In this document: piece after piece, positions 2,463 through 24,233 of the stretch
Position numbering within the stretch: the first letter of the stretch is position 1
Layout: the number at the start of each line of letters is the position of its first letter
Source of the DNA: a virus
Lineage: Duplodnaviria; Caudoviricetes
Strand: one strand, 5' to 3'
DNA: 26,315 nt
IMG/VR virus record: IMGVR_UViG_3300037470_000043
Coordinates: 1 to 26,315 of that record
Program-made: the position numbers and the translations under genes
Notes under the pieces: model-generated
Databases searched by the model: none
What the model saw: only the letters and a program-made list of their open reading frames with translations
Told to the model about the DNA's origin: nothing

Positions 2463-2476
2463 CAAAGGACGTTATC

Positions 2477-6113: not shown

Positions 6114-6116
6114 CTT

Positions 6117-6323: not shown

Positions 6324-6326
6324 AAC

Positions 6327-6349
6327 CTGTGGAAAAAATTGTTACATAG
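6327..6349. repeat. 23-bp palindromic motif, copy 1
   Basis: CTGTGGAAAA AAT TGTTACATAG, directly next to the terminator. Confidence 0.85.
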
Positions 6350-6389
6350 AAAGGGCTAGTTAGAAATTAATCTAACTAGCCCTTTTTTT
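6350..6389. terminator. Intrinsic terminator between convergent operons, probably bidirectional
   Basis: 15-bp stem AAAGGGCTAGTTAGA / TCTAACTAGCCCTTT with loop AATTAA. T7 tract on the + strand and TTTCT on the - strand. Confidence 0.9.
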
Positions 6390-6392
6390 CGT

Positions 6393-9300
6393 TTAACGTT
6401 TAGGTCTTTTTCGTGACTTAATCCTAGCCCGTCCAGATTGTTTCTTCGCATGTCCAGCGTCTAACTTTCGCAAGCCAAATATTTGATCTGTTGGCGTGTC
6501 GTAATACTTATTCGGATAATCATTATCTTGCATAGTCAAGTACTTAACTATCGGCGTGTAATCAAAGTGTTCCTTCGCACCTTCCAATACACCTTTCTGA
6601 TTCATTTCAGTTAACAACTGAACTGGTGGAGACGCAGCTGTCTTAGGCATGGCTGTTGCGTAATACGGAAACTCTTTCGTTCCATGTAGCCAGTCACGCA
6701 TGTAAGGAGCTTCAGTAAACCAGTGAAGAATATCCTTCCCTTCGCTTCGAAAAAGAGCCGTTACTGCGCCAACCATTAACGTATACCGCAGCAGCCGATT
6801 TCGTTTGCTCTTACCGAACGCATCCTTACCCCCTGTCCACTGATCCTTTAAAAGCGATGCACGAAGTTCGAAGGTTTTTTGCACGGTGGTTTGAAACATT
6901 CCAAGCAACCTACCGGCCGGGTTCTTCATGTATAATGGCTGGTCAACACCGCCACGAAAGTTAGCTTTGAGAATAGAATCTAACACTAAGGCACGTGCTT
7001 GATCTACTGTCAACTTAGCGTTCGCTGAGGCGATCGTAGTAGCCATAATCGTAACACCGTTATCTAACATCTCCGTTGTAGTTGTTAGGCTGCCTGATAA
7101 AGCTTTAACTAACGACCACGAAGATTTAAGCCCTGGTGTTTCGTCTAGAACTCTAACAATCTGATCCATTGAAACGTAGGCTTTAAACAAATCCAGCTCA
7201 GGAGTATCACCTTTCATGCCAAGCATTTTAGCCGTAGCCTGTAACGGAAGTTTTGAGGTCTGATACATTCCTTGCATTGTTGCCGACATAGTGTTGACAC
7301 CGAAAGTATCAAGTAGCTTCGATGCGTGCTTAGCTGCCGTTGACAAGGACAAACCTACGAGCCTTACGTACTCAGCGTTCACAACTCCGTTAACTACTTT
7401 ATTAACCAAGCCACCGTGTTCTTTATACAGGTTCGACTTGAGCCAATCCTGCATCATCTCACGCATGTTAGGTGGAGCTTGATACTCAATAAAATCACTC
7501 CACCGATCTAGCAAAGGCTGGAAAGCTAGCTTTCGCTCGACAGTAGGAATATAGTGATCCAGCAACTGATTAATGTCAGGAAGCCATACACGAGAATATG
7601 GAACCTGAGAAGCGAACTTTAATTTAATCGGCACACTTGGTACGTACTTAAAAGCCTTAGCCCATTTATCAGTAGCTATCTCACCAAACGAATGCGTGAT
7701 GTAAGCACCGTCTTCTTTCGTAGGCAATCCGAGCTCACGCATACGGGTAGCTGTAGCTTCAAAATACTCCGTAGCTTTTTCAGCTAACATCGCTTCAGCA
7801 GGGGAAAGAGAAATTCCTTTTGGTAACTTTCCTGCGGCAGCCAAAGCAACACGGACACGTGGATTCTTCTCCGCCAAAGGCACAATCATTTTATCGTACT
7901 TGTTTACTAAATTCTCCATTGTAGCTTTACGAAGATTCTTATAACGTTTACCTGCTGCGGTTGCCTGTGCTTTATACTTAGCAACAGCCATTTGAGCTTT
8001 GACTAACTCAGCCTTGTAGATCGGAATCTTCGGATGCGCTGCATGGGTGTTAGCTAAGCGACGTTCATTCAGCTTAACCATCTTCTCTGCATCTTTTCTC
8101 CGCACAGAATGCTGGCCTACCTCAGCTTTAAGCTGATCACTTTTATCTAATCCTTTCCGAGTCTCTTCGTACAGCTTACCTAACGTCTGTTCAATGGCTT
8201 GAGTTGCGCTAGGTAATTTACCAAACGTATCCTTAGCCCAACGTTGCGTGTTGCGGATATTAGTACCTAACGCCATCGTACTTTCCATGGCATCTATAAT
8301 CAAACTAGTCCCTGGTTTGAAAAACTTACGCAGGGCAAAGCTTGGCGTAAGCAGGTGGCCTGAGGTAGTACTCGCACGACCACTACCAATCCGCATAAGA
8401 TCCTTTGAAGGATCTAACATTTCAGGAGAATCTTTTGGAATAGCAGGCTTTTGACGCTTAGGCACTTCAAACGAGCCTTGTTTGTACTTAGGCACTATCC
8501 GATCAATTGACTTCATGTAATCGACCAGATCTTTAATCGGACTTACGCTGGGGTTAAACGCTCTGTCAAGATCGATTTCCATTTGCTGCTTAATCAGGTT
8601 AGCATAATACGCAGCTTCTGCCTCAGACAGCTTAACCTTTTTAACTGTCTTCTCTTCAGCTTTCTTCATGTCCTTTTTAACTTTCGCTTTTCCTGCTACG
8701 TCTTTCAATACTTCTTTTACCGTTGTCAACTCTTCCACTACTTGTGGAATTTCCGTAACATCTCCTGAAGCTGCGGCAGCTTTCACTTTTTGCTGCCCCT
8801 CTCCGATAGCTTCCGCTGCCGCCGTAGTTTCGTCATAGCCCAGATGAATAACCTTACGCTTAGCTGCGTTAAGCTCGGCTGCAACTTCTTTCAACGAACG
8901 TTTAAGTTTGCTGACGTCTTTACCCAGCGCTCCGCGCTCGTCGCTGAACAGATCCGTAAGATCACGTACAGTTCTTCCTAACCTACCTTCAATTTCTTCA
9001 ACCTGATCGTAATAATCCTTCTCCTGATCAAGCTGCTTAAGCTCTTCCCAGGATTGCATTTCAGGATCATAAGCATCAGGATCGCTGTCAAGAATCTGTT
9101 GAATCTCTTCCTCAGGAGTTAACTGTTTCTTTGTCTTAGTTTTTTCCGCGGCGGCTTTAATCGCATCTCGCCGAGTAGCTTGACTTTGTTTCATAGTCAG
9201 TTCAGCCATAACAGGCTCAGGGGCCTTAGCCATAACTTGACTGGAAGGCTTATTCGCCAACGCTTTTGTGTCATACGTTCTCGCACCTTCTTCATACTCC

Positions 9301-10970
9301 GACATAGCTTTTTTCAGGTTGCTTGTGTCAATGTCGAAATCATCATCTAGAAAATCATCATCAACTAACTCCGGCTCAGGCGTAACTTTCTGAGCAGCAC
9401 GATAACGATCTCCTACTTTGATCAGCTCAAGCTGACCGCCAGCTAAGTCCGCACGAGAGCCCGCAGATTTAAGAAAGTTCTGCGCAGAAGTTACGTCACT
9501 AAACTTTCGAGGATTCAATTGGTAGTTCTCAGCCTTCGCTAAAGCTTCGTCCGTGAACGTCGGAACTGCTTTCACGTCAGCAATTTGTTGTTCGAATTCT
9601 TTGAGTTTAGTTAAAGCATTTTCAGCTCCGTTTTTCTTTTCTTGCGGAATGCGTACAGTTTTGCCGTTTGAAAGTTTAGCTTTCCAAAACTGCTCTCCAT
9701 TTTTAGTCATCAAATCAGCGCCGAGAGCTTCAAGCTCTGCGTCGACACCTTGCAAGGGAGGCTCTGAAAGTTCAACAGGTTCAATGGGTTGAGCAGCAAC
9801 AGGCTCCTGTGGAACAAATTGTTCCATAGGTACAGCAGGTTTCTCAGTCATCCCAAGCTGAATCGGTGCGCCAGCAGGGAGTTCGTTCATGGCCGGAACC
9901 TGCCGAGGCGGCTTAGGCGCAGGAAGGCCTAATGGTTGACCGGGTACAGGAGGCGCTACAGCAGATTCCGCTGTCGGAACCTCAGCAGATGCAAACAGCC
10001 CTTGGGCTTCAGCAGCCTCCGCTAACTCAACGGCATACGCGTCAAGGGCTAGTGAGTCTGATTTAGGATACGCGGCTTTAACGGCTTCAACAGAGCCTAA
10101 TTCAGCTACACGGTTTAACACATTAGCCTGTTGTTTTTTCGTCAGGCTTGTCGTTGTAGGTTTAGCCGTTGGTGTCACTGGTTCAACAGGAGCCACCGGA
10201 CTAGCTGCTTTGGCAGGTTCCACAGGGGCAGCTGGCGCACTCCCCGGTTTCGAAACTTCTACAGCATTCCGCATCGCTGCAGCTTCTGTTTTATACGCAG
10301 GATATTTTCTAAGCAATTCTCCCTGGCTTATTCCAGGATTTGCTTTTTGTACCTGCTCCCAGGAAGGTAGCGTCATTCCACGCTCAGGAATCCGAGCCAT
10401 TCGTACAGGGGTAGAATTCCAAACTCGCTTAACACCGCCGCCAACAAGCATCGGAACTCCGACGTCCACAGCTGCAACTGTACTTGCGGCAAGTCCCGGA
10501 CTGCCTGTAAGATCTTGAACTAAATTCCCTAACGGCTTTGCTGCGTATTTATCCAGCCACTCGAAAGGCTTAGCGGTCATCTCAGACGTAAACGCCCCAG
10601 CCTTCGTTTGTGGCCCAGTCCGTTCTGCAACGAATTGTTGAATAGTCTGAATATTTCGTTCAGCTAATTCAGTATTAGCTTTCGTTGGAGGTGGATCTCC
10701 AGGCTTCCAGCCTTCAGGCGTAGTCCCGCTGAACAAGCTACCGAGTCCAACTAACCCTGAAGCAGCCATCGTCGGCATAGCCGCAGCAAAGTCTCGCGTA
10801 GGTGCAGTATAAGCGTCGATGCCTGCACCAAGAAAGTCAGCATAGGCACCGACGCCTTTTTTAATCTTCTGTCCAGTGGAGTAGATTTTATTAGGCGTTT
10901 CATCAACTAGAGGCTTTGACGCAGCTTCACCTGAGGATAGATCAGTAAGGTTATAGTTAATAATAGCCAT
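6393..10970 (-). CDS. Large internal virion / DNA ejection protein (positional analogue of P22 gp16 or T7 gp16)
   Basis: 1525 aa and the last gene of the morphogenesis operon. Pro/Ala-rich N-terminal linker, acidic patches, helical C-terminal half with a hydrophobic helix (LLRYTLMVGAVTALF) and a basic tail. Function inferred from position and composition. Confidence 0.65.
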   Translation of the reverse strand: MAIINYNLTDLSSGEAASKPLVDETPNKIYSTGQKIKKGVGAYADFLGAGIDAYTAPTRDFAAAMPTMAASGLVGLGSLFSGTTPEGWKPGDPPPTKANTELAERNIQTIQQFVAERTGPQTKAGAFTSEMTAKPFEWLDKYAAKPLGNLVQDLTGSPGLAASTVAAVDVGVPMLVGGGVKRVWNSTPVRMARIPERGMTLPSWEQVQKANPGISQGELLRKYPAYKTEAAAMRNAVEVSKPGSAPAAPVEPAKAASPVAPVEPVTPTAKPTTTSLTKKQQANVLNRVAELGSVEAVKAAYPKSDSLALDAYAVELAEAAEAQGLFASAEVPTAESAVAPPVPGQPLGLPAPKPPRQVPAMNELPAGAPIQLGMTEKPAVPMEQFVPQEPVAAQPIEPVELSEPPLQGVDAELEALGADLMTKNGEQFWKAKLSNGKTVRIPQEKKNGAENALTKLKEFEQQIADVKAVPTFTDEALAKAENYQLNPRKFSDVTSAQNFLKSAGSRADLAGGQLELIKVGDRYRAAQKVTPEPELVDDDFLDDDFDIDTSNLKKAMSEYEEGARTYDTKALANKPSSQVMAKAPEPVMAELTMKQSQATRRDAIKAAAEKTKTKKQLTPEEEIQQILDSDPDAYDPEMQSWEELKQLDQEKDYYDQVEEIEGRLGRTVRDLTDLFSDERGALGKDVSKLKRSLKEVAAELNAAKRKVIHLGYDETTAAAEAIGEGQQKVKAAAASGDVTEIPQVVEELTTVKEVLKDVAGKAKVKKDMKKAEEKTVKKVKLSEAEAAYYANLIKQQMEIDLDRAFNPSVSPIKDLVDYMKSIDRIVPKYKQGSFEVPKRQKPAIPKDSPEMLDPSKDLMRIGSGRASTTSGHLLTPSFALRKFFKPGTSLIIDAMESTMALGTNIRNTQRWAKDTFGKLPSATQAIEQTLGKLYEETRKGLDKSDQLKAEVGQHSVRRKDAEKMVKLNERRLANTHAAHPKIPIYKAELVKAQMAVAKYKAQATAAGKRYKNLRKATMENLVNKYDKMIVPLAEKNPRVRVALAAAGKLPKGISLSPAEAMLAEKATEYFEATATRMRELGLPTKEDGAYITHSFGEIATDKWAKAFKYVPSVPIKLKFASQVPYSRVWLPDINQLLDHYIPTVERKLAFQPLLDRWSDFIEYQAPPNMREMMQDWLKSNLYKEHGGLVNKVVNGVVNAEYVRLVGLSLSTAAKHASKLLDTFGVNTMSATMQGMYQTSKLPLQATAKMLGMKGDTPELDLFKAYVSMDQIVRVLDETPGLKSSWSLVKALSGSLTTTTEMLDNGVTIMATTIASANAKLTVDQARALVLDSILKANFRGGVDQPLYMKNPAGRLLGMFQTTVQKTFELRASLLKDQWTGGKDAFGKSKRNRLLRYTLMVGAVTALFRSEGKDILHWFTEAPYMRDWLHGTKEFPYYATAMPKTAASPPVQLLTEMNQKGVLEGAKEHFDYTPIVKYLTMQDNDYPNKYYDTPTDQIFGLRKLDAGHAKKQSGRARIKSRKRPKR
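9807..9829. repeat. 23-bp palindromic motif, copy 2 (intragenic)
   Basis: CTGTGGAACA AAT TGTTCCATAG, encoding PMEQFVPQ within the 1525-aa ORF. Confidence 0.88.
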
Positions 10971-10993
10971 AATAAAATCCTTTACTGGAAGAA

Positions 10994-11782
10994 TTATTCT
11001 AAAAACTTCTCAACGTTCTTAGCCCATACAGGATCATCTTCATCGATATCATGAGCTTCGCGGAGCTGGTTAAGGAACTGTTTTAACTGTTCCGGTCCCA
11101 TCTTACCCAAGCCCTCTTTCGGCGAGATAAAGTAAAGGGAACGAGCAGGTGCAGTAACCGTTTTGCCTCGCCAGTTTTGATACTCCACAGGCTGCAGATC
11201 AATCTGACCTAACGCTTGGCCAGAATGCTCAAGAGCACGACTGATGGAAGTAAGCTCACTTTGCGTCATGTTCTGCCGTACACGCCCAGTAGAACGTCCA
11301 TCAGAATCTTGTTCATACAACAGTGATCGTGCATAGTTATCAGCATCCATCGAATCTTTGGCAGTAGGTATTGGCGGCCTAAAACCTACCGCAGCCATGT
11401 CGCCGAAGTTAACTTTCGACGGATCATTTCCGGCTTCACCCATTCGCCCAATAGCGCCTAGTTTCGACTCAAGCTCACGAGACATTAAACTAATACGAGT
11501 TGAATCTTGTTCAAGTTTTCGTGCCGCTTGAGTAAGCCGTTCAACTTCTGCCGCATTCTTAGCTGTTGCGAGTTGAGCATTAAGCTGAGTCTTTACAGCA
11601 TCCAAATACTGCGCTTGATTGGTTAACACTAATGACATGTCACGATATTCTTTAAGATCTTGCCGTCCTTGAATATCATTAATTAGCCCGCCTTCATTTA
11701 ACTTATCCTTAAACCCTCCACGAAGACTATCGGCCATTAGCGCAGCATTAGCGTGCCCGGCATTGCCGAGTTGCAAAATCAT
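10994..11782 (-). CDS. Putative ejection protein, possibly the C-terminal part of a -1 frameshift fusion with 11845-12456
   Basis: 262-aa ORF with a coiled-coil segment. No convincing SD before ATG 11782, and the frame stays open upstream to 11902. Confidence 0.6.
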   Translation of the reverse strand: MILQLGNAGHANAALMADSLRGGFKDKLNEGGLINDIQGRQDLKEYRDMSLVLTNQAQYLDAVKTQLNAQLATAKNAAEVERLTQAARKLEQDSTRISLMSRELESKLGAIGRMGEAGNDPSKVNFGDMAAVGFRPPIPTAKDSMDADNYARSLLYEQDSDGRSTGRVRQNMTQSELTSISRALEHSGQALGQIDLQPVEYQNWRGKTVTAPARSLYFISPKEGLGKMGPEQLKQFLNQLREAHDIDEDDPVWAKNVEKFLE

Positions 11783-11792
11783 CTCAGGCGGC

Positions 11793-11846
11793 AGCCCCGT
11801 CAGGTCTGGAAACGCTGCATTTCCAGAGCCTGAATCCGACGGGGCT
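11793..11846 (-). promoter_or_regulatory. Strong RNA hairpin, candidate frameshift stimulator
   Basis: On the - strand: AGCCCCGT/ACGGGGCT (8 bp), CAGG/CCTG and TCTGGAAA/TTTCCAGA (8 bp). It begins inside the TAG stop of 11845-12456. Confidence 0.6.
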
Positions 11847-12456
11847 ACCAGGGGCGGGGTGGATTGAAGTAATTGCCCAGGGATCGTTGAGCTGTAGGAG
11901 GATTAACCCCTCCTTGATATCCTTCCGGAACACCTTCAACGGACTGCGGGAACTGAGGAACACCAGGAGGAGGAGGCCCGGTGCCGCCGCTAGCCCCAGT
12001 CCCCGCAGCTTTGTTAACATCTCGTGTGTTGCCTTTGATACTATAGCCATCGCCAGTAAGGGTCATACTGGTAGGACCCGCAACTCCCGCAGCAGTGAAA
12101 TCACCTATGCCAGGTACACCTAGATTCGGCGCTTGCTGATTGTTGTAGACGTTGGGATTGTTAAGCGTCCCACGCAAAGCGTCCAACATGCTCTGCCGTT
12201 CCACTTGCTGCGCTTTAGTGGCTTTATTTGCTAAGCTACTCTGCGCCATGAAAGTTCCGATCCCAGCCATAGGATTATTAGGAGCTAATCCACGGCCGAT
12301 CGAATCCGCGATGATAGAGAATTTTTCAGGATTCTGCTGTAACCAGTTATTAGCCTGGCTAAACATATTCCCAAAGCTAAATCCTGCAGCCGGTTGAGCT
12401 GGCGTAGGACTAGCATTAGGAGGAAGTGCAAACTCTTGTCCTGGAGTTATAGCCAT
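11845..12456 (-). CDS. Putative ejection / internal virion protein (Gly/Pro/Asn-rich)
   Basis: SD AAGGAG. Low-complexity composition, positioned between the pilot protein and the large ejection protein. Confidence 0.65.
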   Translation of the reverse strand: MAITPGQEFALPPNASPTPAQPAAGFSFGNMFSQANNWLQQNPEKFSIIADSIGRGLAPNNPMAGIGTFMAQSSLANKATKAQQVERQSMLDALRGTLNNPNVYNNQQAPNLGVPGIGDFTAAGVAGPTSMTLTGDGYSIKGNTRDVNKAAGTGASGGTGPPPPGVPQFPQSVEGVPEGYQGGVNPPTAQRSLGNYFNPPRPW

Positions 12457-12474
12457 TTTTACGCTCCTTAAAAG

Positions 12475-13407
12475 TTAAGATGATAAAGCACCTGCAACGC
12501 CGCCGACAACTGCTCCGATAGCTGTGCCCCATCCAGGGTTAATTGAGGTACCTACAGCCGCACCGCTCATAGCACCTCCGAGAACGTTTTGAGCTGTTGA
12601 TGCTTCTTTACCTGACTGTGTAGGTGTCCCGCCTCCGATCGAAGCCATTAAGGTTGAGAAGTAGTTAAACAATTCTAGCTCCCAAGTACGATCCTTGGCA
12701 GTTGCTTCGCTAATGAATTTAATCTCATCAAACTTACCTGCTGCATAAACACGCGCTAATTCAGCACTATGCACAACAAGCGTTTTTTGCCAATCAAGAT
12801 ATTGTTTAAAAACTTCATCCGCAAGTTTAAGCATGTTGTAATTAGTTTCAGCTATTAGTTTAGTCACGTCACGATTCTTCTGTGATTCAATAATTGCATG
12901 ACCTATGCTAAAAGCCGAAGTCATCACACACTGCATATCACGCATACCAGCTTGAAAACGAGGTAGAACTTTTAAATCTACATCATCATTCATTATATCA
13001 ATCTCAGCATTCAACAAAGCAACGTGCGCAGGGTTAGTTGAGATGCTGAGGTAGACATCATTGAAAACTGCAACGGTATCAGTTCCAATATTTGAGCTTA
13101 ACAAACCAAAAACTGGATTAGCACTTGCCCCAAACAACGTATCAATACAGCCTGGAAGATGGTCAAGAAAAGGAGATTCATCAAATGCAGCATTCAGGTA
13201 ATAAGTTAAGCTACGTGTTAACGTATCATTACCTCGCCGATTTAATGCTTGCCCATGCGCTTCTTTCATATAACCAGGATAATCAACTTCACCGCTAGAG
13301 CCTCCACCACCTTTAGCTTCCGCGACTACTCCAGCATACTCATAAGAAGTTTCAGATAAAACTTCCATAGTAGCCATATCAATTACTACTTCTGTGTATA
13401 CTTTCAT
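12475..13407 (-). CDS. Putative DNA ejection / pilot protein (P22 gp7-like organisation)
   Basis: N-terminal leader followed by KGGGGSSG. C-terminal glycine zipper GGAMSGAAVG...GTAIGAVVGGVAGALSS. Start set at ATG 13407, after SD AAAGGAG. Confidence 0.7.
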   Translation of the reverse strand: MKVYTEVVIDMATMEVLSETSYEYAGVVAEAKGGGGSSGEVDYPGYMKEAHGQALNRRGNDTLTRSLTYYLNAAFDESPFLDHLPGCIDTLFGASANPVFGLLSSNIGTDTVAVFNDVYLSISTNPAHVALLNAEIDIMNDDVDLKVLPRFQAGMRDMQCVMTSAFSIGHAIIESQKNRDVTKLIAETNYNMLKLADEVFKQYLDWQKTLVVHSAELARVYAAGKFDEIKFISEATAKDRTWELELFNYFSTLMASIGGGTPTQSGKEASTAQNVLGGAMSGAAVGTSINPGWGTAIGAVVGGVAGALSS

Positions 13408-13415
13408 AGCCACTC

Positions 13416-13438
13416 CTTTGGAACAAATTGTTCCATAG
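13416..13438. repeat. 23-bp palindromic motif, copy 3
   Basis: CTTTGGAACA AAT TGTTCCATAG. It fills most of the intergenic gap and overlaps the SD of the pilot gene. Confidence 0.9.
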
Positions 13439-13876
13439 TTACAGACGTTTAGTAACCATTGAAAAATCTTTCGAAAAACCGTACTGCGCTAGCTTGTCAC
13501 ATAAAGCATCGTTATTAGTATAACCAGTGATTACTTGGCAATTGTTCGATTGAGCAAAGGCCGTGAGTACTTCAATGCTTTGCAGCCATTCGGCTTCGTC
13601 TAGAGGACGTATACCGTACAGCACATAAAGATGCAAAAAGCGTTGATTTGAAAAATGATCTGTGGAGATGTCAGTAATCAAAAAGGCCTTAAAATGCTGC
13701 CCGTCGGTATCAAACAAGACCCAGCACTGGAGAATCCCGGTTAGCAGATTCTGCAGTATTCCGTTCATTGCAGCAGGGTTGTCTGCTGTAGTAGGCGGAA
13801 GCACTTGCTGACTCCCATGTTTAATGATATCCCAGTAAGGGGGAATCTGATCAGGTAGTAGTTTAACTATCAACAT
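13439..13876 (-). CDS. Virion assembly protein, possibly GNAT-like fold (position of P22 gp14 / T7 gp13)
   Basis: SD GAGGAGG before ATG 13876. Pattern LQCWV...LHLYVLYG...FAQSNNCQVITGYT...YGF resembles acetyltransferase-like podovirus proteins found just upstream of the ejection genes. Confidence 0.55.
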   Translation of the reverse strand: MLIVKLLPDQIPPYWDIIKHGSQQVLPPTTADNPAAMNGILQNLLTGILQCWVLFDTDGQHFKAFLITDISTDHFSNQRFLHLYVLYGIRPLDEAEWLQSIEVLTAFAQSNNCQVITGYTNNDALCDKLAQYGFSKDFSMVTKRL

Positions 13877-14993: not shown

Positions 14994-15005
14994 TTTGACG
15001 AATCC

Positions 15006-15440: not shown

Positions 15441-15472
15441 GAGTAGACTCCTTAAAAGTAGCAACTGATTAT

Positions 15473-15495
15473 CTATGTAACAAATTGTTACATAG
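15473..15495. repeat. 23-bp palindromic motif, copy 4 (perfect arms)
   Basis: CTATGTAACA AAT TGTTACATAG, intergenic. Confidence 0.92.
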
Positions 15496-15509
15496 GAGAA
15501 GAAAGAATA

Positions 15510-15797: not shown

Positions 15798-16204
15798 ACA
15801 TCAACTCCTATCACCTCGAACGTTATATCAAGATAAGGCCAGGCTTTGACGCAAATCGTGTAAGTACCAGGAACATCAGTAGTAAACTCAAGTGCCGCGT
15901 CTTCATCGTCAACGGAGACTGAATAACCTTCGTGATTAATCCAAACTTCACACGGAAGCGGCAGCTTGCTAATAATAATTTTATCTTCGTCATCAGCTTC
16001 GAAAACAGTTTTGTTTATTTCAGTTTCTTGCCAAGGCCTAGCTTGTCTAACGTGGTTAAGGAGATAAGTTGTGTTAGGGTCAAGATGTTCGTGCAGATAA
16101 AGAAACTCATCCACATCACACTGAATATTTATAGAATCCTCAGGAACAGTTATTTGACGGATAATGCGGCCTTCCACAGAGTAAACAGTACCTAGAATAT
16201 TCAT
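15794..16204 (-). CDS. Tail-tip accessory protein
   Basis: Translationally coupled (ATGA overlaps) on both sides. C-terminal Ig-like segment LEFTTDVPGTYTICVKAWPYLD. Confidence 0.55.
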   Translation of the reverse strand: MNILGTVYSVEGRIIRQITVPEDSINIQCDVDEFLYLHEHLDPNTTYLLNHVRQARPWQETEINKTVFEADDEDKIIISKLPLPCEVWINHEGYSVSVDDEDAALEFTTDVPGTYTICVKAWPYLDITFEVIGVDV

Positions 16205-18156
16205 CGCTTCACTCCTTGCACCATTATGTATTGATGGTAGGTATACAGACGATTAGGACTTCCATGAACGTAGCTCATTGAATGCCTTAACTGAAGCTGA
16301 AAAGTATGCGTACCGGCCGTAGTTATGGTAACAGCTTGACCCGTAGATGTCATCTTAGGTTGACCTATTTGCACATAGGTGACTTGACCTAACGCATTTG
16401 TTGTAGCTGTTGCTTGTGTCGCAAATATACGGGTATCATTTACGGCATAAACGCCATTTCGTAATACTCTTAGATCAACATAGTGCGCATATTGGCTCAT
16501 CTGCCCGTTAGCGGAACAGTGCGCTCCACACAGCACCATAAAAGTTAGAGGCCCATGAACTAGATCAATTGCATTAACTGTAATAGATACCTGGCAATTA
16601 TAAGTTATCCAGTTATAGTTATTCAACAGCACATAGTCAGCGGCATTAGAGGCGCCTGCAACTATCCCGACCGAATTTCCTGCTATGTGTAACGTGCCAA
16701 TAATAGCGTTGTCAATATAAGTAGCATTATTAATCGAATTCAGCCCCGCTAACGCCCCAAGACCTAGTGCATCTAAATCTATCCCCCCACTACCTAAAAT
16801 AACATTCCCGGCAGGATCAAAAATTTCAATGCCTATTGCGGTGTCCCCTGCATTTAACCTACCTAATCGTACGCGCAACTGTCGGGGAGTTTGCTTGTCG
16901 TAAATCGAAATACAATCCTGCGTTCCGTCGAGTTCTATATTCCCTTCGTTACCAAGAAACAAACGATTCAAAATCGCTGAATCTGCAAGTAGTTTATTAG
17001 CTGACAGATTCGCAATATGAGCATCACCAAAAACACCTGTCCCAACCCACAAGTCAACGTTATCAACGTCAATACGTTCAGGAATAAGAAAACCTGAAAC
17101 GCTGTCGATAAGAGTTCCTAGACCACTACCTGAAGTATCTCCGTGAATACCTATAAACATTCCTGTTACGTTAGCAGGAACATCTACACTAAAGCCATAA
17201 AGCGCATAAGACGTCGTTGGATTAAAATTATGCCAGCCGCTACTACCATCATCATGAGCTGTTATCCATCCAAGCGAGACAGCGACTTCAGTCGCAGGAG
17301 CAACTGTAGGCTGTTTAGCCATGAACTGAATACGAACACGATTACCGCGGAAAATTGAAAATGCTGAAGCCGGAATAGGAAGATAAACAGTTCCAGTAAT
17401 TCCAGTGGAAAGTAAATCAGTTACGACTGAAGTAAACAATCCCGCAACCGCTCCGGTGTAAGAATCCGCTGAAGCTGTTATATCACATCCAGTTTGCTGA
17501 ATCCAGAGATCAAAATCAGTTGACTCAAATCCGTTATAAATCGACGTAGCCATGTTCTGCACGTCGCCGATCGTAAGTCCTTCTTCGTCTTCTTGCACTG
17601 GTGTAGGTTCAATAACAATAGTCCCGTCACCAGTGAAGTTATGATAATGCGCAGAAGCGTGACGAATCCTAGCTTCTGTTTGCGCTAGATGATCAAGTGA
17701 AACACCTGCAAGAATAAACTGACCGTTAAAAAGCTCGGCTGAAATTCCTGTTACGATGTAAGCATTTTCGGAAATTTTAAACACGTGCTCTTCAGGATCA
17801 TATACTACCTTACAACTCTCATTAGTAAAATAAGCATATTCTCCGTTAGTAATTCCTGACCACCTCCCCCCTTCCGGAAGATCAGCCAGAAGCAATTCAA
17901 ACACGCCATCATCATAGCGATAAATAGCGTTGATAGTTAAAACTAAAATCCAGTTACGCCAAAGGAAAAACTGTGGAAAGGGCCAGGCACAATTCAACGC
18001 AGAAACATCTATAGCAGTTAATTTAGAAGGCGTTACTAACTTCCCAGCTTCACCTAAAAGATTAGAAGCTACTGCTAGTGTCTCAGCCCCACTAGAAGTG
18101 TATAACGACTTTCGCAAGCCGTTGAAGTTTTTTATCTTAAAAGTGTATTCTTGCAT
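16201..18156 (-). CDS. Mosaic tail protein: nozzle-like N-terminus, carbohydrate-binding-like domain, and tail-tip/spike C-terminus
   Basis: N-terminal ~160 aa beta-propeller-like (WPFPQFF, GGRWS, YAYFTNE, FNGQFILAG). Central jelly-roll-like region. Then AHIANLSANKL, IYDKQ...LRVRLGRL and IGTLHIAGNSV, resembling central tail-fibre C-termini. Confidence 0.55.
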   Translation of the reverse strand: MQEYTFKIKNFNGLRKSLYTSSGAETLAVASNLLGEAGKLVTPSKLTAIDVSALNCAWPFPQFFLWRNWILVLTINAIYRYDDGVFELLLADLPEGGRWSGITNGEYAYFTNESCKVVYDPEEHVFKISENAYIVTGISAELFNGQFILAGVSLDHLAQTEARIRHASAHYHNFTGDGTIVIEPTPVQEDEEGLTIGDVQNMATSIYNGFESTDFDLWIQQTGCDITASADSYTGAVAGLFTSVVTDLLSTGITGTVYLPIPASAFSIFRGNRVRIQFMAKQPTVAPATEVAVSLGWITAHDDGSSGWHNFNPTTSYALYGFSVDVPANVTGMFIGIHGDTSGSGLGTLIDSVSGFLIPERIDVDNVDLWVGTGVFGDAHIANLSANKLLADSAILNRLFLGNEGNIELDGTQDCISIYDKQTPRQLRVRLGRLNAGDTAIGIEIFDPAGNVILGSGGIDLDALGLGALAGLNSINNATYIDNAIIGTLHIAGNSVGIVAGASNAADYVLLNNYNWITYNCQVSITVNAIDLVHGPLTFMVLCGAHCSANGQMSQYAHYVDLRVLRNGVYAVNDTRIFATQATATTNALGQVTYVQIGQPKMTSTGQAVTITTAGTHTFQLQLRHSMSYVHGSPNRLYTYHQYIMVQGVKR

Positions 18157-18158
18157 TA

Positions 18159-18551
18159 TTAGAATACTCCGTTAAACCTACCGTCAAGTTCCTTACGCCC
18201 TGGCTTCGGCCCTACATTGGTTTGGCGCGAGATAGTATGACCGTTACGTAATCTACGTGAAGCTTCCGTAAGCACCTGCTCCATTGAATACTCCGGATGC
18301 TCGGTCTCCACCATTTGCGTAATACGCGCAAGCTGTTGCTTCTGCCCTCGCATGTCAGCGTTTTTCTCATAGAAACTATCAAGCTGTTGCTGCGCATGGG
18401 CACCGTGTTCCATCAGTTGCTTAAGGACATTAGGAAGAATACGAAGAACAGCTTCTACAGCTTTCTGCGTAAAATGCTCTTCCAAGTCTTTCAAAACCGT
18501 AGCATCACCGTTAGCAGCACGTTGGATTAAGCTAGCTATATTAAGTGTCAT
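18159..18551 (-). CDS. Helical protein paralogous to the scaffold C-terminal domain
   Basis: Ungapped similarity to the scaffold at 21063-21992 (LP-x17-DxFY-x9-KQ-x13-P). SD GGAGG; coupled to the adaptor gene. Confidence 0.65.
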   Translation of the reverse strand: MTLNIASLIQRAANGDATVLKDLEEHFTQKAVEAVLRILPNVLKQLMEHGAHAQQQLDSFYEKNADMRGQKQQLARITQMVETEHPEYSMEQVLTEASRRLRNGHTISRQTNVGPKPGRKELDGRFNGVF

Positions 18552-19246
18552 CTGAGATCCTCCCCTAACACTTCCTGCTCAATCATATCCATCTCCAGCG
18601 CAGAAAGTTCTTGATTAATTCCACTAAGCCAATCATTAGCTCCAGTTGTATTGCGATTAAAAATTTCGAGTTTGTAAAGAGCGGCCATTAAAAGCAGATC
18701 AGGATAGTTAATCGTCCAGAAGTTAGTATCCGTTGAAAGCGTAAGAAACGTAGATTCAAACAGACCTACAATTTCGATTACGTAATTAGCGTCAGTAGGA
18801 TTAAAAACGATGCCGTTGTAAGTAGCATCATCCACTTGCACATGCTGAATAAACTGACCCAGAGAGTTAAAAGCCGTAAGCTCAGTAGCACGAAGATTTA
18901 TCAACGTATAATAAGCCGGTCGAGTTACCGCGACTGAGTTGGCTAAACCCGCAAAAGCCGTATAAAACTCAGGTGCAGTAAGAAACTGTAACTTAGTTCT
19001 CGCAACTGCATCTGACACCCAAACTTCTTTAACAGCTCGACAGCGTGTAAAGAGAAACTTAAACGCCTGTGCTGAGACTGTTCCGAAACAAGTAGCACTA
19101 GACTTCAAGTGCTGCACCCCTTTATCCAGGAACCTTACACCTGCCTGAATGAAGAAATCTGCGCCGTTGTCCGTCATATCCTCGTTCTGCAAATCATACC
19201 TGCCAGAACGTTCGACAAATAAATTACGGATTTCAAACAGGGTCAT
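18548..19246 (-). CDS. Head-tail adaptor / tail tubular protein A-like
   Basis: First gene after the capsid gene. Motifs MTLFEIR...DFFIQAG, RPAYY and TNFWTINYPDLLLMAAL are typical of podovirus adaptor proteins. Confidence 0.75.
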   Translation of the reverse strand: MTLFEIRNLFVERSGRYDLQNEDMTDNGADFFIQAGVRFLDKGVQHLKSSATCFGTVSAQAFKFLFTRCRAVKEVWVSDAVARTKLQFLTAPEFYTAFAGLANSVAVTRPAYYTLINLRATELTAFNSLGQFIQHVQVDDATYNGIVFNPTDANYVIEIVGLFESTFLTLSTDTNFWTINYPDLLLMAALYKLEIFNRNTTGANDWLSGINQELSALEMDMIEQEVLGEDLR

Positions 19247-19254
19247 AAAAGCTC

Positions 19255-19277
19255 CTATGGAACAATTTGTTACATAG
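19255..19277. repeat. 23-bp palindromic motif, copy 5
   Basis: CTATGGAACA ATT TGTTACATAG, lying between the post-capsid hairpin and the adaptor SD (TAGGAG). Confidence 0.9.
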
Positions 19278-19306
19278 GGGAGTTGAGAATAACTCCCAAC
19301 TCCCCT
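19276..19306 (-). terminator. Hairpin after the major capsid gene (weak terminator or mRNA stabiliser)
   Basis: AGGGGAGTTG/CAACTCCCCT 10-bp stem, extendable by GGA/TCT. No U-tract follows. Confidence 0.65.
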
Positions 19307-19326
19307 GAGAATATATTAGTTCCTTA

Positions 19327-20631
19327 TTACGAAGGCGACCCGTTAGTCGCACCGAAACCAGTCATCAGCGCACATTTCTGCGGATGATGATGTTCCAGGC
19401 CGGCTTCAGTCAACCATTCTTCGGCAGTACCGTCGTAGCGAGTTTTACCGGTGTTTTGTTTCTCGCCTTCGCCGTAGAACGTAGTGTCAGTGATATGACG
19501 ATAACGAAGATCGGAACCGTCGAAGATTACCAGAGTGTTACGATCAGTCGCTTCAAACGAGAACAACGGGTGACGTTTGAAATTGATCTGGCCGAACGGA
19601 GTTTTAAACTTGGTCACAGCCATACCGAAGGTAGTGGTGGTGTCGTCGATCTGATAGTTGCCCTTGGCTTTGATGATCTTGTTCAGCGCCAGGATGACAC
19701 CAGAGCCGCAGAAGGCATCGCGATCGGAGCCGCCATGACGGAAGATCTGCTCAAGATAGTAATCGAGCCACTCCTCACCCGCGTCGACGAAGTACTTGTT
19801 CTGGAAGGCTACATTGGTCTCAGCTGCGAAGTCAGTGACGATCGCACCATTAGCCGTGTTCTGGCGAATGAAGTTGATCAGACCCAAAGTGGTTCGTTCC
19901 GGCTTACCGTTGTCGCCGACGTTTTCGGTCTTAATCCCCCACAGAAAAGCTTTTTCCATTTCGATGCCGTGGAGTTCGAGGGCTTCGCGCTTGGCTTCTT
20001 TATAAGCCTCGCCGGTGCGCAGATTCGTTCTCCGTGCAGTACGGGAGATTTCCAGGGGAGTCCGAAAGATCTGGGTCAGGTTATAGAACTTCGTCGGATC
20101 GTACGCAATGGCCGACGGCATGGCGCCCATTTCAGCATTGATGCTGCCGATGACCAGAATACGATCAGCATCGGAAATATCACCTGCAGATGAATTATCA
20201 TCATCTTCGAGCAACCGAACAGTGATAACAGAAGTAGCCCCGTTTTTCAAAACGTCAAGACATTTACCGACACAGTCGACAGTCAGATCAGACTCGTCGC
20301 GAAGCAGGACCTGATGACCGGAACGGAAATGTTCAGCAGTAGCCAACGGGACTTTACAATACAAAACAGTACCGGCAACGCCGCCAGAAGTGTAGGCCGA
20401 AGAAAGAAGCGAATCAGTGTAGGTAGTCGTAATCGCCCCACCTTGTACAGGAAGTGCTTTAGTCCACCAGTAAAACTCCGGATCATCAGTAGCTTCAGAC
20501 TTCATCAGCGAAGTCAAACCAGTCAACGGCATTTCACCGTCAGGGTAAACACGCAGAAGCTGATTACGCCAGTTCTTCGGCCGCTGATCAGCTACGAAAT
20601 CATTGGAACCACGAACACCAAGAAGAGACAT
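19327..20631 (-). CDS. Major capsid protein (DUF5309/SU10-type, HK97 fold)
   Basis: 434 aa. Motifs YNLTQIFRTPLEISRT, EALELHGIEMEKAFLWG, FGMAVTKFKTPFGQI and EEWLTEAGLE. Located downstream of the scaffold and followed by a hairpin. Confidence 0.88.
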   Translation of the reverse strand: MSLLGVRGSNDFVADQRPKNWRNQLLRVYPDGEMPLTGLTSLMKSEATDDPEFYWWTKALPVQGGAITTTYTDSLLSSAYTSGGVAGTVLYCKVPLATAEHFRSGHQVLLRDESDLTVDCVGKCLDVLKNGATSVITVRLLEDDDNSSAGDISDADRILVIGSINAEMGAMPSAIAYDPTKFYNLTQIFRTPLEISRTARRTNLRTGEAYKEAKREALELHGIEMEKAFLWGIKTENVGDNGKPERTTLGLINFIRQNTANGAIVTDFAAETNVAFQNKYFVDAGEEWLDYYLEQIFRHGGSDRDAFCGSGVILALNKIIKAKGNYQIDDTTTTFGMAVTKFKTPFGQINFKRHPLFSFEATDRNTLVIFDGSDLRYRHITDTTFYGEGEKQNTGKTRYDGTAEEWLTEAGLEHHHPQKCALMTGFGATNGSPS

Positions 20632-20666
20632 TTTGAGTATCCTTTCAAAAAGAAGCTGAAGTTAGA

Positions 20667-21050
20667 TTACGAGAAGGCAACAGCGCCCAGGTTTTCAACG
20701 ATCAGAAAACGAGTGTCAGAAACACCGTAGAGAACCAAAGATTCAGCAGCGGCATTAAAAGTAGCCACATCGTTGGTGCCGTCGAAAGTGCCAGCAGCCA
20801 AAGTGACTGTGTGGCCGGCAGTACCCCCGTCGACCTGAGTAATTACAAGAAACCGGCCAGGACGGGGCTTGGCGATAGTTGCCGCAATCAACGGAGTAGT
20901 GCTGCTGAGTTGCACGAGTTCAGCATACTCGTTGATAGCCCCATTAGCAGTGGCAGTAACCAACTGAACTTTCTGCCGCTCAGTAGCACGGTCATATATC
21001 GGATGCCCTATTACATCCTGATTAAGCTGTTTAGCAAAAGTGTCACCCAT
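20667..21050 (-). CDS. Putative capsid decoration / minor head protein
   Basis: 127-aa Ala/Thr/Gly-rich beta protein between scaffold and capsid. SD AAGGAG. Confidence 0.55.
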   Translation of the reverse strand: MGDTFAKQLNQDVIGHPIYDRATERQKVQLVTATANGAINEYAELVQLSSTTPLIAATIAKPRPGRFLVITQVDGGTAGHTVTLAAGTFDGTNDVATFNAAAESLVLYGVSDTRFLIVENLGAVAFS

Positions 21051-21062
21051 GATGGAACTCCT

Positions 21063-21992
21063 TTAAGAAAATAGATCGTTAATTTCCTGTTCAATTTTTG
21101 ACGTCTTCACAGTAGCAGGAGCATTACGTGAAGAAGCCGTACGAGGCAACGCAGTGGATTGAGCCGTCACAACAGGCGTTACTGGTGTATTCACCGAACC
21201 TGTCGGAGCTTGGGCAGGCAAGTTCAACTTCGCATACGCCATATCCGCAATTTGCGGAAGGATAGAATCAAGCGTTGCTTGGGGATTGGCCGTTTGCAGG
21301 TCGTTAGCAACTAAGCCAACAACTTGCTTAAAATTAGCCAACACAGGGTGTGCTTGGTAAAACTGATCTATGGATTTCTCCATTGAAATAGTCTGCCGAA
21401 TCGCAGGTTGAACCAATGTAGGGAGAGCAGTCACTAACGCATGAAGCTGCTCCATCATCGGTCCAATTGCCGCAGATACGGCACTGTTCAAAACCTGGTT
21501 AAACAATTCAGGTTTTGAAACAACTTCATCAATATCAAGATCCCCAAGAAAATCCTGTGTTTCCCGAGTATCTTTCCCAGCCTGAGGCGTAGGTGGAGTC
21601 GCCGCTTCAGTAGGCTTAACGGAAGATACTGCTTGAGCTTGAGCTAGTTTAGTCGAAAGCTCTTCGAGTTGATTACGAAGAGTTGTTAATGGATCATCAG
21701 GAGTAGCAGTTGCCGGAGTTGCCGGAGTTGCCGGATCTACTACAGGCTCAACTGGAATAGTTGCAGGTGCTGTTGAATCTGCAGGCACAGTAGCTCCAGC
21801 CACCACTGCAGCAGGCTCAGGTGGCTCAGGCGGATCAAGAGGCGTCGCGGGATCAGCTGGAGGATCAGCCGGAAGCTCTTCTTTCCCGTCCCCCCCAGGC
21901 GCGAACAAATCTTCAAAGTCTTCGTCAAAAATATCTAACTGATTATTCCGGTTAACTTTCTTCAGTTTTCTCCACATCCCCGTCCGAATCAT
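21063..21992 (-). CDS. Capsid scaffolding protein
   Basis: Acidic and Pro/Ala/Thr-rich N-half, coiled coil and helical C-terminus, between portal and capsid. SD GGAGG. Confidence 0.75.
   Translation of the reverse strand: MIRTGMWRKLKKVNRNNQLDIFDEDFEDLFAPGGDGKEELPADPPADPATPLDPPEPPEPAAVVAGATVPADSTAPATIPVEPVVDPATPATPATATPDDPLTTLRNQLEELSTKLAQAQAVSSVKPTEAATPPTPQAGKDTRETQDFLGDLDIDEVVSKPELFNQVLNSAVSAAIGPMMEQLHALVTALPTLVQPAIRQTISMEKSIDQFYQAHPVLANFKQVVGLVANDLQTANPQATLDSILPQIADMAYAKLNLPAQAPTGSVNTPVTPVVTAQSTALPRTASSRNAPATVKTSKIEQEINDLFS
21708..21734. repeat. 3 x 9-bp tandem repeat AGTTGCCGG (PAT x3 in the scaffold)
   Basis: Read directly from the sequence. Confidence 0.85.
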
Positions 21993-22245
21993 ACTCAGCC
22001 TCCATGGTTAGAATATTTATAATAGTATCCGGAAGCTGCATTAAATCGCGCGCGGAGCGAATACAGCCTCGAATAACAGCGGTCTCAACATCACTCAAAC
22101 TTGGGTCTTCTAAATTATGATGCGCGTTACTAATCCAAAGCTCCATTTCCTGCAGCATATCTTGCCAGAGCAACGAGTCCTTAAACTGCTCAAACTGCCC
22201 CCGAGTGCAGCGATACCCCGTCTTCTTTGGAACATTTTGTTCCAT
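21952..22245 (-). CDS. Small head-assembly-region protein
   Basis: 97-aa helical ORF between portal and scaffold, a common podovirus position. Its ATG lies inside palindrome copy 6. Confidence 0.65.
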   Translation of the reverse strand: MEQNVPKKTGYRCTRGQFEQFKDSLLWQDMLQEMELWISNAHHNLEDPSLSDVETAVIRGCIRSARDLMQLPDTIINILTMEAEYDSDGDVEKTEES

Positions 22246-22247
22246 AG
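22225..22247. repeat. 23-bp palindromic motif, copy 6
   Basis: CTTTGGAACA TTT TGTTCCATAG, immediately after the portal stop codon. Confidence 0.9.
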
Positions 22248-24182
22248 TTATATCATCCCTTCTTGCGCTGCTTGCGCTACTGGAATTATGTTACCTTTTT
22301 GAGCTTCTTGCATTACTTCTTCATTCGACGCTGTCGAAGTTCGAATAAATTCGTCAACGTTTTTCGCGCCGTTATTCCTTGCAATGTGCTTGAAGATCCT
22401 AGCCACATCAAACTTCTGCCCAAGCTCAGGTTGCTTGGTAATGATTTCAAACATACGTTCCCAGACTTGAGAATAGTTACTTCCAGGAAGCTCACCGCTA
22501 CTAATGATTACATCATAAGCAATAGACAAATCAGACGGCTTAACAGCAAAACGTGTCGGAGCATTTAATCCATACTCAGACTGCAGCCGTTCCAGCCAAT
22601 CACCAGAAACTTTAATAAACGTCTCTTGGGTCATAAACTGCTGCGTATGAGACGCGAAGAACTCACCAATGTCGTTCAAGCCCTGATAGGCCAGAATCTG
22701 CGCTATCCGGTTTAAGCGAGAAAAAGCTCCCTGCCGAGTACCCTGAAACTCTTCACCTGTAAGCCGCTCAGGCCCACCTTGTCGCAAAGAGCCCATCGAG
22801 CCATCGTCAGCACCACCAATTCTCTGCATCCACTGTACGATGAAAGCAGAATCTGCTACATGGCCACGTGTAACATCGGACACAGGGAGCTGCATGATAG
22901 AATCTTTCACGCCCTTACCCCACGCAGGTCTGCGTGTACGGACAAGTTTGCCTTCTTCAGGATTCTTCAAATCCTCGCTATTAAGCAGAAAAGGATCATA
23001 GATTAATACATCGTTAATAGCTTTACGTACGTTGGTGATGTGTGCGTTGAAGAGCCAGTCAAGCGTACCTTGCAGTCCAAACAACGTCTCAAGTCGCGAT
23101 ATCGGAGTAGTTGAATATCCGTCAAACTCAGGCGCTACAGTGGCAATAGGAAACTGATCATGCCAGAGCCCAAGAGGTTTAGCTTCGATAAGGATAGAAT
23201 CTCCAGCTACAGTAAGCATCCACTTTTCGGGATAATCACTAGTCCCAAGACCATGCTTGCTGGGGATTAGTTTCACATACATGATGATTTTATCAACAGG
23301 GTTGACTACAGCATCGTTCTCAATGGTACCGAGATTTGTTTTAGTATTCCGCCCTGACGGATCATCAGACATTATACAAGTTCTACGAACCCCTAAGTGC
23401 TCAAGATACCTAGCATTAAAAATTCCGTTTTCAGAATCCTTCTCATCTGATAAGATGTTCATGACGTTAGTAGATTCAATCCAACCTACAAACTCGCCAT
23501 CCTGTACCCGTTGGATAGGGACAGAAGGGTCAAGAAGCAGTTTGTACGGATCGATATTAACTAACCCATTACCTTCAAAGGCCAGGTTAGTAGCCGAATC
23601 CCCTGCCAACCCATTCATCATACCCTCAAGAGCTGTCGACTGTTTAGGCTTTTTATTCGTCTTACGCACCCAGATAGGTGCCGCTGAGCCTACTCCATAC
23701 GCCAATGCGTCTCGAAAAAATGTATGAAGAGCAAGTGGAACTTTAGTCTTCTGCGCATGAACTTGGTTAACGTGCTGTAGGAGCTGAGCACCTATCACAT
23801 CCTCAGGCCCAACTCCCTCGTAACGAAAAATCGGATCCTGAAAAAATACGGCACAAAGGTAGCTGAGCAAGGTTTCCATAATTGCGTAAGAGTACGGAAA
23901 CACAATCGAAACGGGCTTACGTTTGTCCCGAAGTTTAAGTTCTTTTTCTTTATCACTAAGTACGATATACCCCGTAAGAACGTGATCTATCTCACGCCAC
24001 GACGAATGCCGCCCTGTCATCACATTAGCACTTGCCCGTGCACGATCCATGACAAGCTTAACAAGCTCCTCGTGCTGTTTCGAACCTGGTTTTAAATTCA
24101 ACTCATTCGGATACGAATAATCATAATTCACGTCTTTGAAGTTTACCTGTGTACGTGTATTAGTGTTAATGACAACAGGCAT
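22248..24182 (-). CDS. Portal protein
   Basis: ~644 aa directly after TerL. Motifs FFRDALAYGVG, IDPYKLLLDP, LQGTLDWLFNAHITNVRKAIN and ERLTGEE. Start set at ATG 24182 after SD AGGGAG. Confidence 0.88.
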   Translation of the reverse strand: MPVVINTNTRTQVNFKDVNYDYSYPNELNLKPGSKQHEELVKLVMDRARASANVMTGRHSSWREIDHVLTGYIVLSDKEKELKLRDKRKPVSIVFPYSYAIMETLLSYLCAVFFQDPIFRYEGVGPEDVIGAQLLQHVNQVHAQKTKVPLALHTFFRDALAYGVGSAAPIWVRKTNKKPKQSTALEGMMNGLAGDSATNLAFEGNGLVNIDPYKLLLDPSVPIQRVQDGEFVGWIESTNVMNILSDEKDSENGIFNARYLEHLGVRRTCIMSDDPSGRNTKTNLGTIENDAVVNPVDKIIMYVKLIPSKHGLGTSDYPEKWMLTVAGDSILIEAKPLGLWHDQFPIATVAPEFDGYSTTPISRLETLFGLQGTLDWLFNAHITNVRKAINDVLIYDPFLLNSEDLKNPEEGKLVRTRRPAWGKGVKDSIMQLPVSDVTRGHVADSAFIVQWMQRIGGADDGSMGSLRQGGPERLTGEEFQGTRQGAFSRLNRIAQILAYQGLNDIGEFFASHTQQFMTQETFIKVSGDWLERLQSEYGLNAPTRFAVKPSDLSIAYDVIISSGELPGSNYSQVWERMFEIITKQPELGQKFDVARIFKHIARNNGAKNVDEFIRTSTASNEEVMQEAQKGNIIPVAQAAQEGMI

Positions 24183-24198
24183 AGTGTAACTCCCTAAC

Positions 24199-24221
24199 CT
24201 ATGTAACAATTTGTTCCACAG
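24199..24221. repeat. 23-bp palindromic motif, copy 7
   Basis: CTATGTAACA ATT TGTTCCACAG, between TerL and portal. Confidence 0.9.
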
Positions 24222-24233
24222 GTAAATTAAAAA

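Follow-up and report, generated by a model that had tools for sequence, protein, structure and literature searches.

Evenly dispersed palindromes in a podophage family and their probable binder, a ParB-methyltransferase fusion protein

The described systems that come closest to the one reported here are those in which a ParB-family protein reads palindromic DNA sites, namely ParB-parS and Noc-NBS (PMC7383237, PMC8367383) and KorB of the IncP plasmid RK2, which loads at its operator OB and slides (PMC11790492); according to a title in the reference list of the latter paper, RK2 carries 12 OB operators. In ParB, cytidine triphosphate (CTP) closes the N-terminal gate and the DNA moves to a compartment between the DNA-binding and C-terminal domains, the spreading range being about 5–10 kb, and Caulobacter ParB E102A remains closed and spreads further (PMC8367383). 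Fusions of ParB with N6N4-methyltransferases are frequent in phages, and a possible anti-defence role has been suggested for them (PMC12704722). Also described are the stoperators of mycobacteriophages, which are asymmetric sites for a monomeric immunity repressor and belong to lysogeny (PMC9283540). We have analysed a 26,315-nucleotide stretch of viral DNA (Duplodnaviria; Caudoviricetes; IMG/VR record IMGVR_UViG_3300037470_000043, positions 1 to 26,315), referred to below as the window, which carries seven dispersed palindromes and, at 412–1830 on the plus strand, the gene of a ParB-methyltransferase fusion protein of 472 amino acids (aa) that we propose as their binder. No published target sites of ParB-methyltransferase fusions came to light in our literature searches, which did not extend to most subscription journals.

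A first-pass annotation of the window had reported the palindromes as a 23-bp pattern starting at 6327, 9807, 13416, 15473, 19255, 22225 and 24199, and all seven were recovered at these positions. The consensus proposed for them is matched perfectly by six copies, the first departing from it at one position, and none of 100 shuffled sequences contained any match at up to three mismatches. We prefer a 25-bp frame, composed of 10-bp arms and a 5-bp spacer (10-5-10), which fits the site better than the 23-bp one. When scanned with a matrix built from the window, the seven sites scored 31.8–42.4 and the next best place −2.9, and no site was present in positions 1–6300, in agreement with the annotation. 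Its list of copies with mismatched arms (1, 5 and 7) was right as far as it went but incomplete, since six of the seven copies are imperfect and solely that at 15473 has perfect arms.

In the 25-bp frame, site 1 (6326–6350) occupies the place where early and late transcription converge and is flanked by two terminator-like stems. Site 2 (9806–9830) lies within a gene of 1525 aa, in a Pro/Glu-rich part, where it encodes PMEQFVPQE (PMEQIVPQE in the relative G001); site 3 (13415–13439) is located 3' of a stop codon and reaches into the ribosome-binding site of a 312-aa gene; and site 4 (15472–15496), the sole copy whose 10-bp arms are perfect in the 23-bp frame, is intergenic. Site 5 (19254–19278) is found just past a hairpin 3' of the major capsid gene and reaches into the next ribosome-binding site, site 6 (22224–22248), at the portal stop codon, contains the ATG start of a 97-aa gene, and site 7 (24198–24222) is placed between the terminase and portal genes. 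Thus six copies sit at gene junctions and one inside the 1525-aa gene, as had been described. The longest gap in the window is below that expected by chance, both for uniform placement (p 0.0014) and for placement at random gene junctions (p 0.0002). A comparison of the window with G001 shows 7 differences in 175 site bases, every one at a position that is variable in the family, and 42 in 675 flanking bases.

To identify sites in related phages, loci anchored on the capsid were searched de novo for palindromes. Many relatives possess a 25-bp family of the same 10-5-10 design at similar places, with inner bases that differ per lineage; the annotation had proposed scanning related phages with a position weight matrix, and analogous lineage-specific site sets were indeed found genome-wide. 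Each of 13 near-complete genomes carries 7–20 copies, distributed over the early and late halves and separated from the background by a wide gap in score. The confinement of the sites to the late region, as originally described, does not hold in the relatives, and it arose because no more than about 6 kb of the early half falls within the window. G033 is 92% identical over 3.95 kb to G001, which in turn shares 92% identity with the window; the early half of G033 contains the window's own motif nine times, and a search for the exact window motif returned multiple copies in one other contig only. Phages with close capsid proteins can differ in their sites, as do the window and G010.

The even spacing seen in the window is a property of the family. 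Across 12 complete genomes (G004, nearly a duplicate of G003, was excluded), the longest gap was below chance with a combined Fisher p of 6e-7 for uniform placement and 9e-9 for placement at junctions, so the earlier suggestion that spacing is under selection is borne out in the window as well as in complete relatives. One site occurs per 2–11 kb. Among 24 genes of at least 1000 aa, 13 have an internal site, the places and encoded peptides of which differ, although these rows include three pairs of near copies. Altogether, 189 sites from 17 genomes were classified: co-directional junctions hold 125, convergent ones 17 and divergent ones 14, while 25 sites lie within reading frames and 8 at sequence edges.

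The fusion gene follows the sites in its distribution. Together with two small genes, designated F14 and F20, it was present in all 13 site-bearing complete genomes, whereas G031 (97% complete) has neither the fusion gene nor the site family, and in G006 (72% complete) the fusion is absent from its usual place and the site family is likewise lacking. A further genome without sites, G009, is uninformative because the fusion region is missing from its sequence. Relatives of the fusion were obtained through alignment searches; the polymerase and the fusion, used as single query proteins, had yielded almost nothing. A site was detected in 93 of 103 fusion-bearing rows; the ten others comprise six loci of 6–18 kb, two of which have a clear variant or a family missed by the filter, and four distant phages.

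Evidence on the binder also comes from covariation between the fusion protein and the sites. An association between His159 of the protein and G at site position 7 (G7) was noticed on about 17 genomes, before 80 further loci were collected. After dropping sequences of at least 85% identity, the first set comprised 61 rows, 42 of them with at least three de novo sites and 19 scored with the family matrix. Among 401 alignment columns, the column that best explained position 7 was residue 159 (z 8.9, R2 0.72), position 8 was best explained by residue 160, position 10 by residue 164 and position 9 again by residue 160, with residues 161 and 158 third and fourth; residues 158, 159, 160 and 164 all belong to the helix-turn-helix (residues 147–174, encoded at 850–933 on the plus strand). 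His or Arg at 159 and G7 were concordant in 58 of 61 rows, with nine independent pairs on a tree built without residues 120–200, about eight changing the same way and none in the opposite way (p 0.008); rows with de novo sites alone gave 39 of 42 (p 0.03).

The association also held in sequences collected afterwards, where 78 matches, less 29 redundant ones and 23 with too few sites, left 26 rows. In these, G7 was found in 4/4 rows with His or Arg159 and in 0/22 others, A7 in 3/3 rows with Gln159 and G9 in the single row with Asp158. When both sets were combined (87 non-redundant rows, quick tree), His/Arg159 and G7 were concordant in 84 rows with 14 changes on the tree (p 0.008), Gln159 and A7 in 86 (3 pairs), and Asp158 and G9 in all 87 (4 pairs). 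The window protein itself has His159 and Arg164, and the window sites mostly have G7 and C10. By eye, residue 159 aligns with R173 of ParB and Q158 of Noc, which in solved contacts bond guanine 1 and adenine 1, respectively (PMC7383237), so that this position of the helix seems, as in ParB and Noc, to read G through Arg or His and A through Gln. Control genes examined on the same rows gave lower best z values (F14, 4.0 against 9.9 for the fusion; F20, 5.4 against 9.7; F18, 5.9 against 9.5), and F14, F20 and F18 were rejected as binders because their covariation is weaker; the small terminase (14 rows), F25, F17 and F23 were represented in only 14–33 rows, too few for statistics. Because substitutions in the sites run parallel to those in the recognition helix of the fusion, we consider it very likely, from sequence comparison, that the sites are its binding sites; the first-pass annotation had named no binder, although the gene of the fusion (412–1830) is part of the window.

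The predicted binder combines a ParB-fold nucleoside triphosphatase (NTPase), the helix-turn-helix and a beta-class N6/N4 DNA methyltransferase, with PF02195 scoring above cut-off and PF01555 as the recognised domains. The ParB N-terminal domain (residues ~12–110; 445–741) has invariant R27, R29, R72, R73, E103, E106 and N107, those from R29 onwards being present in 61/61 rows. The methyltransferase domain (residues ~219–445; 1066–1746) stands in place of the canonical ParB C-terminal dimerisation domain, which is absent, and has DPPY (251–254) before PFAGSG (408–413); key positions of these motifs are kept in 58–61 of 61 rows, DPPY and the motif I glycines in 60–61. The DPPY motif cannot separate N6-methyladenine from N4-methylcytosine as the product (PMC8259958). 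Both the nucleotide-binding and the methyltransferase motifs are almost invariant though the rows are only ~46% identical. The predicted structure (mean predicted local distance difference test score 82) has helices at 148–155 and 159–174, and its fold matches were N4/N6 methyltransferases, the beta class best, followed by Noc, ParB and KorB.

With modest confidence, we favour a model in which the fusion loads at the sites, slides and methylates the phage's own DNA in cis; the 'loading or organising sites' of the first-pass annotation would thus come closest to the function, while its likening of the sites to stoperators was not upheld. A dimer of the fusion would bind the 25-bp site via the helix-turn-helix, a bound nucleotide would close the N-terminal gate in a ParB-like manner, and the methyltransferase domains, replacing the C-terminal dimer domain of ParB, would close the other end of the ring. 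Beta-class methyltransferases often dimerise. The Type III Mod protein is a case of a dimeric methyltransferase (PMC8259958). Once let go by the helix-turn-helix, the DNA would run past the catalytic domains, and the clamp would slide over the next few kilobases, methylating phage DNA as it goes. With a site every 2–11 kb, intragenic even, where needed, the whole genome would come within sliding range. As the fusion gene adjoins that of the DNA polymerase, progeny genomes may be marked during replication, and DNA without a matching site would remain unmarked. The replacement of ParB catalytic residues in the fusion, viewed together with the behaviour of ParB E102A, suggests that the clamp may be long-lived, or alternatively that it may not use CTP in the fashion of ParB.

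A number of observations weigh against this model or against the identification of the binder. Only two close gene-less genomes are available, and profile hidden Markov model searches show F14 and F20 to be missing there as well. G022 is unevenly spaced, and in G005, G012, G020 and G024 the test against uniform placement alone did not reach significance. No 25-bp family is seen in the four distant phages, whose fusion is diverged. The column that best explains site positions 2, 4, 5 and 6 lies in each case outside the helix-turn-helix, which we attribute to kinship among the rows. The pairing of Arg164 with C10 is concordant in 86 of 87 rows (4 pairs), but the rule was framed post hoc; His159 taken alone gives p 0.07 on the 87 rows, Arg having been included after the data were seen; Arg168 and G2 are linked by one independent pair only; and two rows with His, L171 and L228, have T7. 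Within the ParB domain, Gly replaces the catalytic Glu of the GERR box in 57/61 rows (GGRR) and Arg replaces the Gln of box I, which makes CTP hydrolysis doubtful. N6N4-methyltransferase fusions were among the proteins chosen in the study of PMC12704722, the main text of which names none of them among 11 nucleotide binders, and a phage ParB has been described that activates a DNA-modifying enzyme with its nucleotide-binding residues dispensable (PMC13229309). Finally, genomes that carry the fusion strongly avoid restriction-type words (GATC in G011, 2 observed against 304 expected; in G007, 0 against 188), and the mark is therefore no blanket shield.

Other functions can be considered for the same protein and sites. 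The fusion may be a KorB-like repressor or roadblock that times expression, perhaps held in position by the F14 or F20 protein, methylation being secondary. The sites are suitably placed for this, as 63 of the 125 at co-directional junctions have a start codon at most 20 nt from their end, often overlapping the ribosome-binding site, and a site stands directly upstream of the F14-F20-fusion cassette in G033, G003 and G016 (G033 and the window share no overlap, and adjacency of a site to F14 at the window start was deduced from the reading frame). Furthermore, KorB, a ParB-family clamp, represses at a distance with KorA (PMC11790492), and F14 and F20 accompany the fusion in 13/13 genomes. We nevertheless regard such a role as rather unlikely, given that sigma-70-like promoters occur near 17/125 sites against 24/207 control junctions (a weak test, since few of the hosts are known), that convergent gene ends account for 17 sites and the interior of reading frames for 25, and that the phages look lytic and the invariant methyltransferase motifs would be needless for a repressor. 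The invariance of the catalytic motifs across rows ~46% identical, along with the two relatives that live without the whole cassette, also makes it quite unlikely that the fusion serves to organise the replicating genome by bridging, compaction or hand-over to replication or packaging proteins, a role in which the spacing would be architectural and to which the intragenic sites and the gene's position beside the DNA polymerase would be well suited. Were the fusion instead to stay on its site and methylate a base in or right beside it, a regular local mark would result; this would be compatible with the replaced ParB catalytic Gln and Glu and with the text of PMC12704722, which shows no nucleotide binding for such fusions, but no A or C position is fixed across the family's sites, some spacers (in G020) contain no adenine, and all nucleotide-binding residues are retained, which makes it an improbable mode of action.

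That a molecule other than the fusion uses the sites, be it F14 or the small terminase, a host regulator, a phage-specific promoter system or RNA hairpins that act in processing or in the control of translation, seems to us very improbable. The presence pattern of F14 and F20 is the same as that of the fusion, and the small terminase, for which only 14 rows were available for scoring, contains a helix-turn-helix; however, the predicted DNA-reading strand of F14 is identical in phages with different sites, and the terminase helices of G008 and G021 are nearly the same, yet their site position 7 differs. Another molecule as the user is also difficult to reconcile with sites that differ where capsid proteins are close. 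RNA hairpins were rejected on the basis of 150 oriented sites, the transcribed strand of which showed no bias to G-U pairs (41, against 52 A-C mismatches), and of the absence of Rfam matches in the window; the preference of the first-pass annotation for a dimeric DNA-binding protein over an RNA stem is in line with these counts. Promoters would be expected to have a fixed −10 element, which is lacking, and late-only promoters were rejected because the sites are genome-wide, occurring in both halves, at convergent ends and inside genes, with no conserved flank at a fixed distance.

Partition of the ParABS type and lysogeny are also unlikely, as neither ParA nor a tyrosine integrase was detected in 12 near-complete relatives. 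ParA (PF13614) scored above cut-off in 0/12 of them and in 14/14 controls, the conserved ATPase of the relatives being AAA_24, and the sites are dispersed and evenly spaced rather than clustered. A tyrosine integrase (PF00589) was found in 0/12, serine integrases not having been searched for, and the 22 matches to contigs of bacterial genomes were all on contigs of 48 kb or less.

Compared with KorB, the system described here likewise involves a ParB-family protein and dispersed palindromic sites, without a single centromere, on a replicon of similar size (PMC11790492). Unlike KorB, it belongs to lytic-looking phages without ParA/IncC, the protein ends in a DNA methyltransferase, and the sites are 25 bp long with a 5-bp spacer, vary among lineages and show no sign of promoter targeting. 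With ParB and Noc the fusion shares the N-terminal fold, a helix-turn-helix and a palindromic site (PMC7383237, PMC8367383), and it differs from them in the lack of ParA, in its dispersed sites, in GGRR for GERR, in having no canonical C-terminal dimer domain and in its fused enzyme. The window protein belongs to the fusion architecture of PMC12704722, the relevant passages of which give no DNA target, site set or mechanism. The ParB-activated thymine dioxygenases of phages also couple a phage ParB fold to post-replicative DNA modification, but there the ParB is a separate activator without a DNA-binding domain, whereas the fusion has a helix-turn-helix that covaries with the site (PMC13229309). 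Stoperators, which are repressor-type sites, are likewise numerous in a phage genome and likewise have a specificity that diverges among relatives (PMC9283540); the comparison fails because the sites described here are two-fold symmetric and because of the lifestyle of the phages, which have no tyrosine integrase. A site-loaded fusion of this kind would be KorB-like in its working, is ParB-like in its fold, and lies outside both the ParABS and the stoperator systems.

Upstream of the fusion gene, the window begins with the 3' part (1–159, plus strand) of F14, a gene of about 78 aa, ribbon-helix-helix-like by eye and the first gene of the three-gene cassette, followed by F20 (90 aa; 143–415, plus strand), which is always found upstream of the fusion. 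Neither covaries with the site, and both are candidate partners of the fusion or regulators of the operon. The neighbours of F14 in the protein atlas are unnamed phage proteins. In G006, diverged remnants of F14 and F20 were discernible by eye.

Variants of the site were noted in several relatives. Apparent 26-bp versions with a 6-bp spacer occur in L199, L216 and at G012:970, and the fusion proteins of L199 and L216 have in common the helix KSP[AS]SIVQDIMLA/S. Vibrio phage VS-ABTNL-3 (L099) carries another palindrome family in 3–4 copies (at 173, 6568, 23359 and 38800), and its ParB-methyltransferase is diverged, with a helix-turn-helix that aligns poorly. The conserved inverted repeats of phage phiC31 bear a resemblance to the sites, on which a literature search returned no relevant paper. 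As regards word usage, CATG was rarer in 16 carriers (observed/expected 0.01–0.81) than in four gene-less genomes (0.78–0.97); this is a post hoc observation on one of 16 words and no more than a lead to the methylation target. Blanket anti-restriction was unsupported by the word counts, a comparison to which the four gene-less genomes give little power.

The window is a 26-kb piece of a podophage genome, with the ParB-methyltransferase, dCMP deaminase, family A DNA polymerase and primase on the plus strand and the terminase, portal, capsid, adaptor and presumed ejection proteins on the minus strand. Its closest annotated relative is Desulfofustis phage LS06-2018-MD01 (capsid identity 48%), strictly lytic by the prediction of its authors (PMC10370329) and a member of a community whose methylation is readable from its long reads (PMC9296519). 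The PaP2/119X/PaMx41 phages are distant kin (capsid identity 24%), and PaMx41 has neither the fusion gene nor the site family. The podophage family is large and mostly uncultured, with hundreds of IMG/VR loci (547 matches in the alignment search). The DNA polymerase (2477–4948), next to the dCMP deaminase, possesses an N-terminal uracil-DNA glycosylase domain. The large terminase (24234–25719) is split into two overlapping reading frames of 297 aa and about 200–250 aa; it is split likewise in G001 and G021 and intact in G010, where it is 19 nt shorter, and is probably a genuine two-piece protein and not an assembly error. Behind the primase gene, a 12-bp stem and a T run (plus strand) close a region of about 200 nt (6113–6320) with three inner hairpins and an RNA fold z of −2.4; it gave no match in Rfam or in phages, nothing resembling it is found at that place in G010, and a contig of run X3 spans it and then continues into different sequence.

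Taken as a whole, sequence comparison points to a site set whose design has been conserved in a large phage family and whose predicted binder is well supported. ParB-methyltransferase fusions are common in phages yet unexplained (PMC12704722), and one large family of them now gains a concrete predicted DNA target, with a residue-to-base code that also held on rows collected after its framing; some 90 natural protein-site pairs are thereby at hand for studying how specificity evolves in the ParB family. If sliding is confirmed, the fusion would be a nucleotide-gated, enzyme-carrying clamp that restricts DNA modification to the molecule bearing its site. A further step, which we offer tentatively and regard as doubtful, is private self-marking, in which a long-lived ParB clamp with the methyltransferase as its hinge would paint only genomes with the phage's own lineage-specific site. 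Phage DNA would then be distinguishable from that of the host and of co-infecting relatives, with possible uses in defence evasion, packaging, or protection from the phage's own nucleases; a race to keep the mark private would underlie the rapid drift of site and helix, and the residue-to-base code might yield a programmable, site-loaded DNA methylator of kilobase range.

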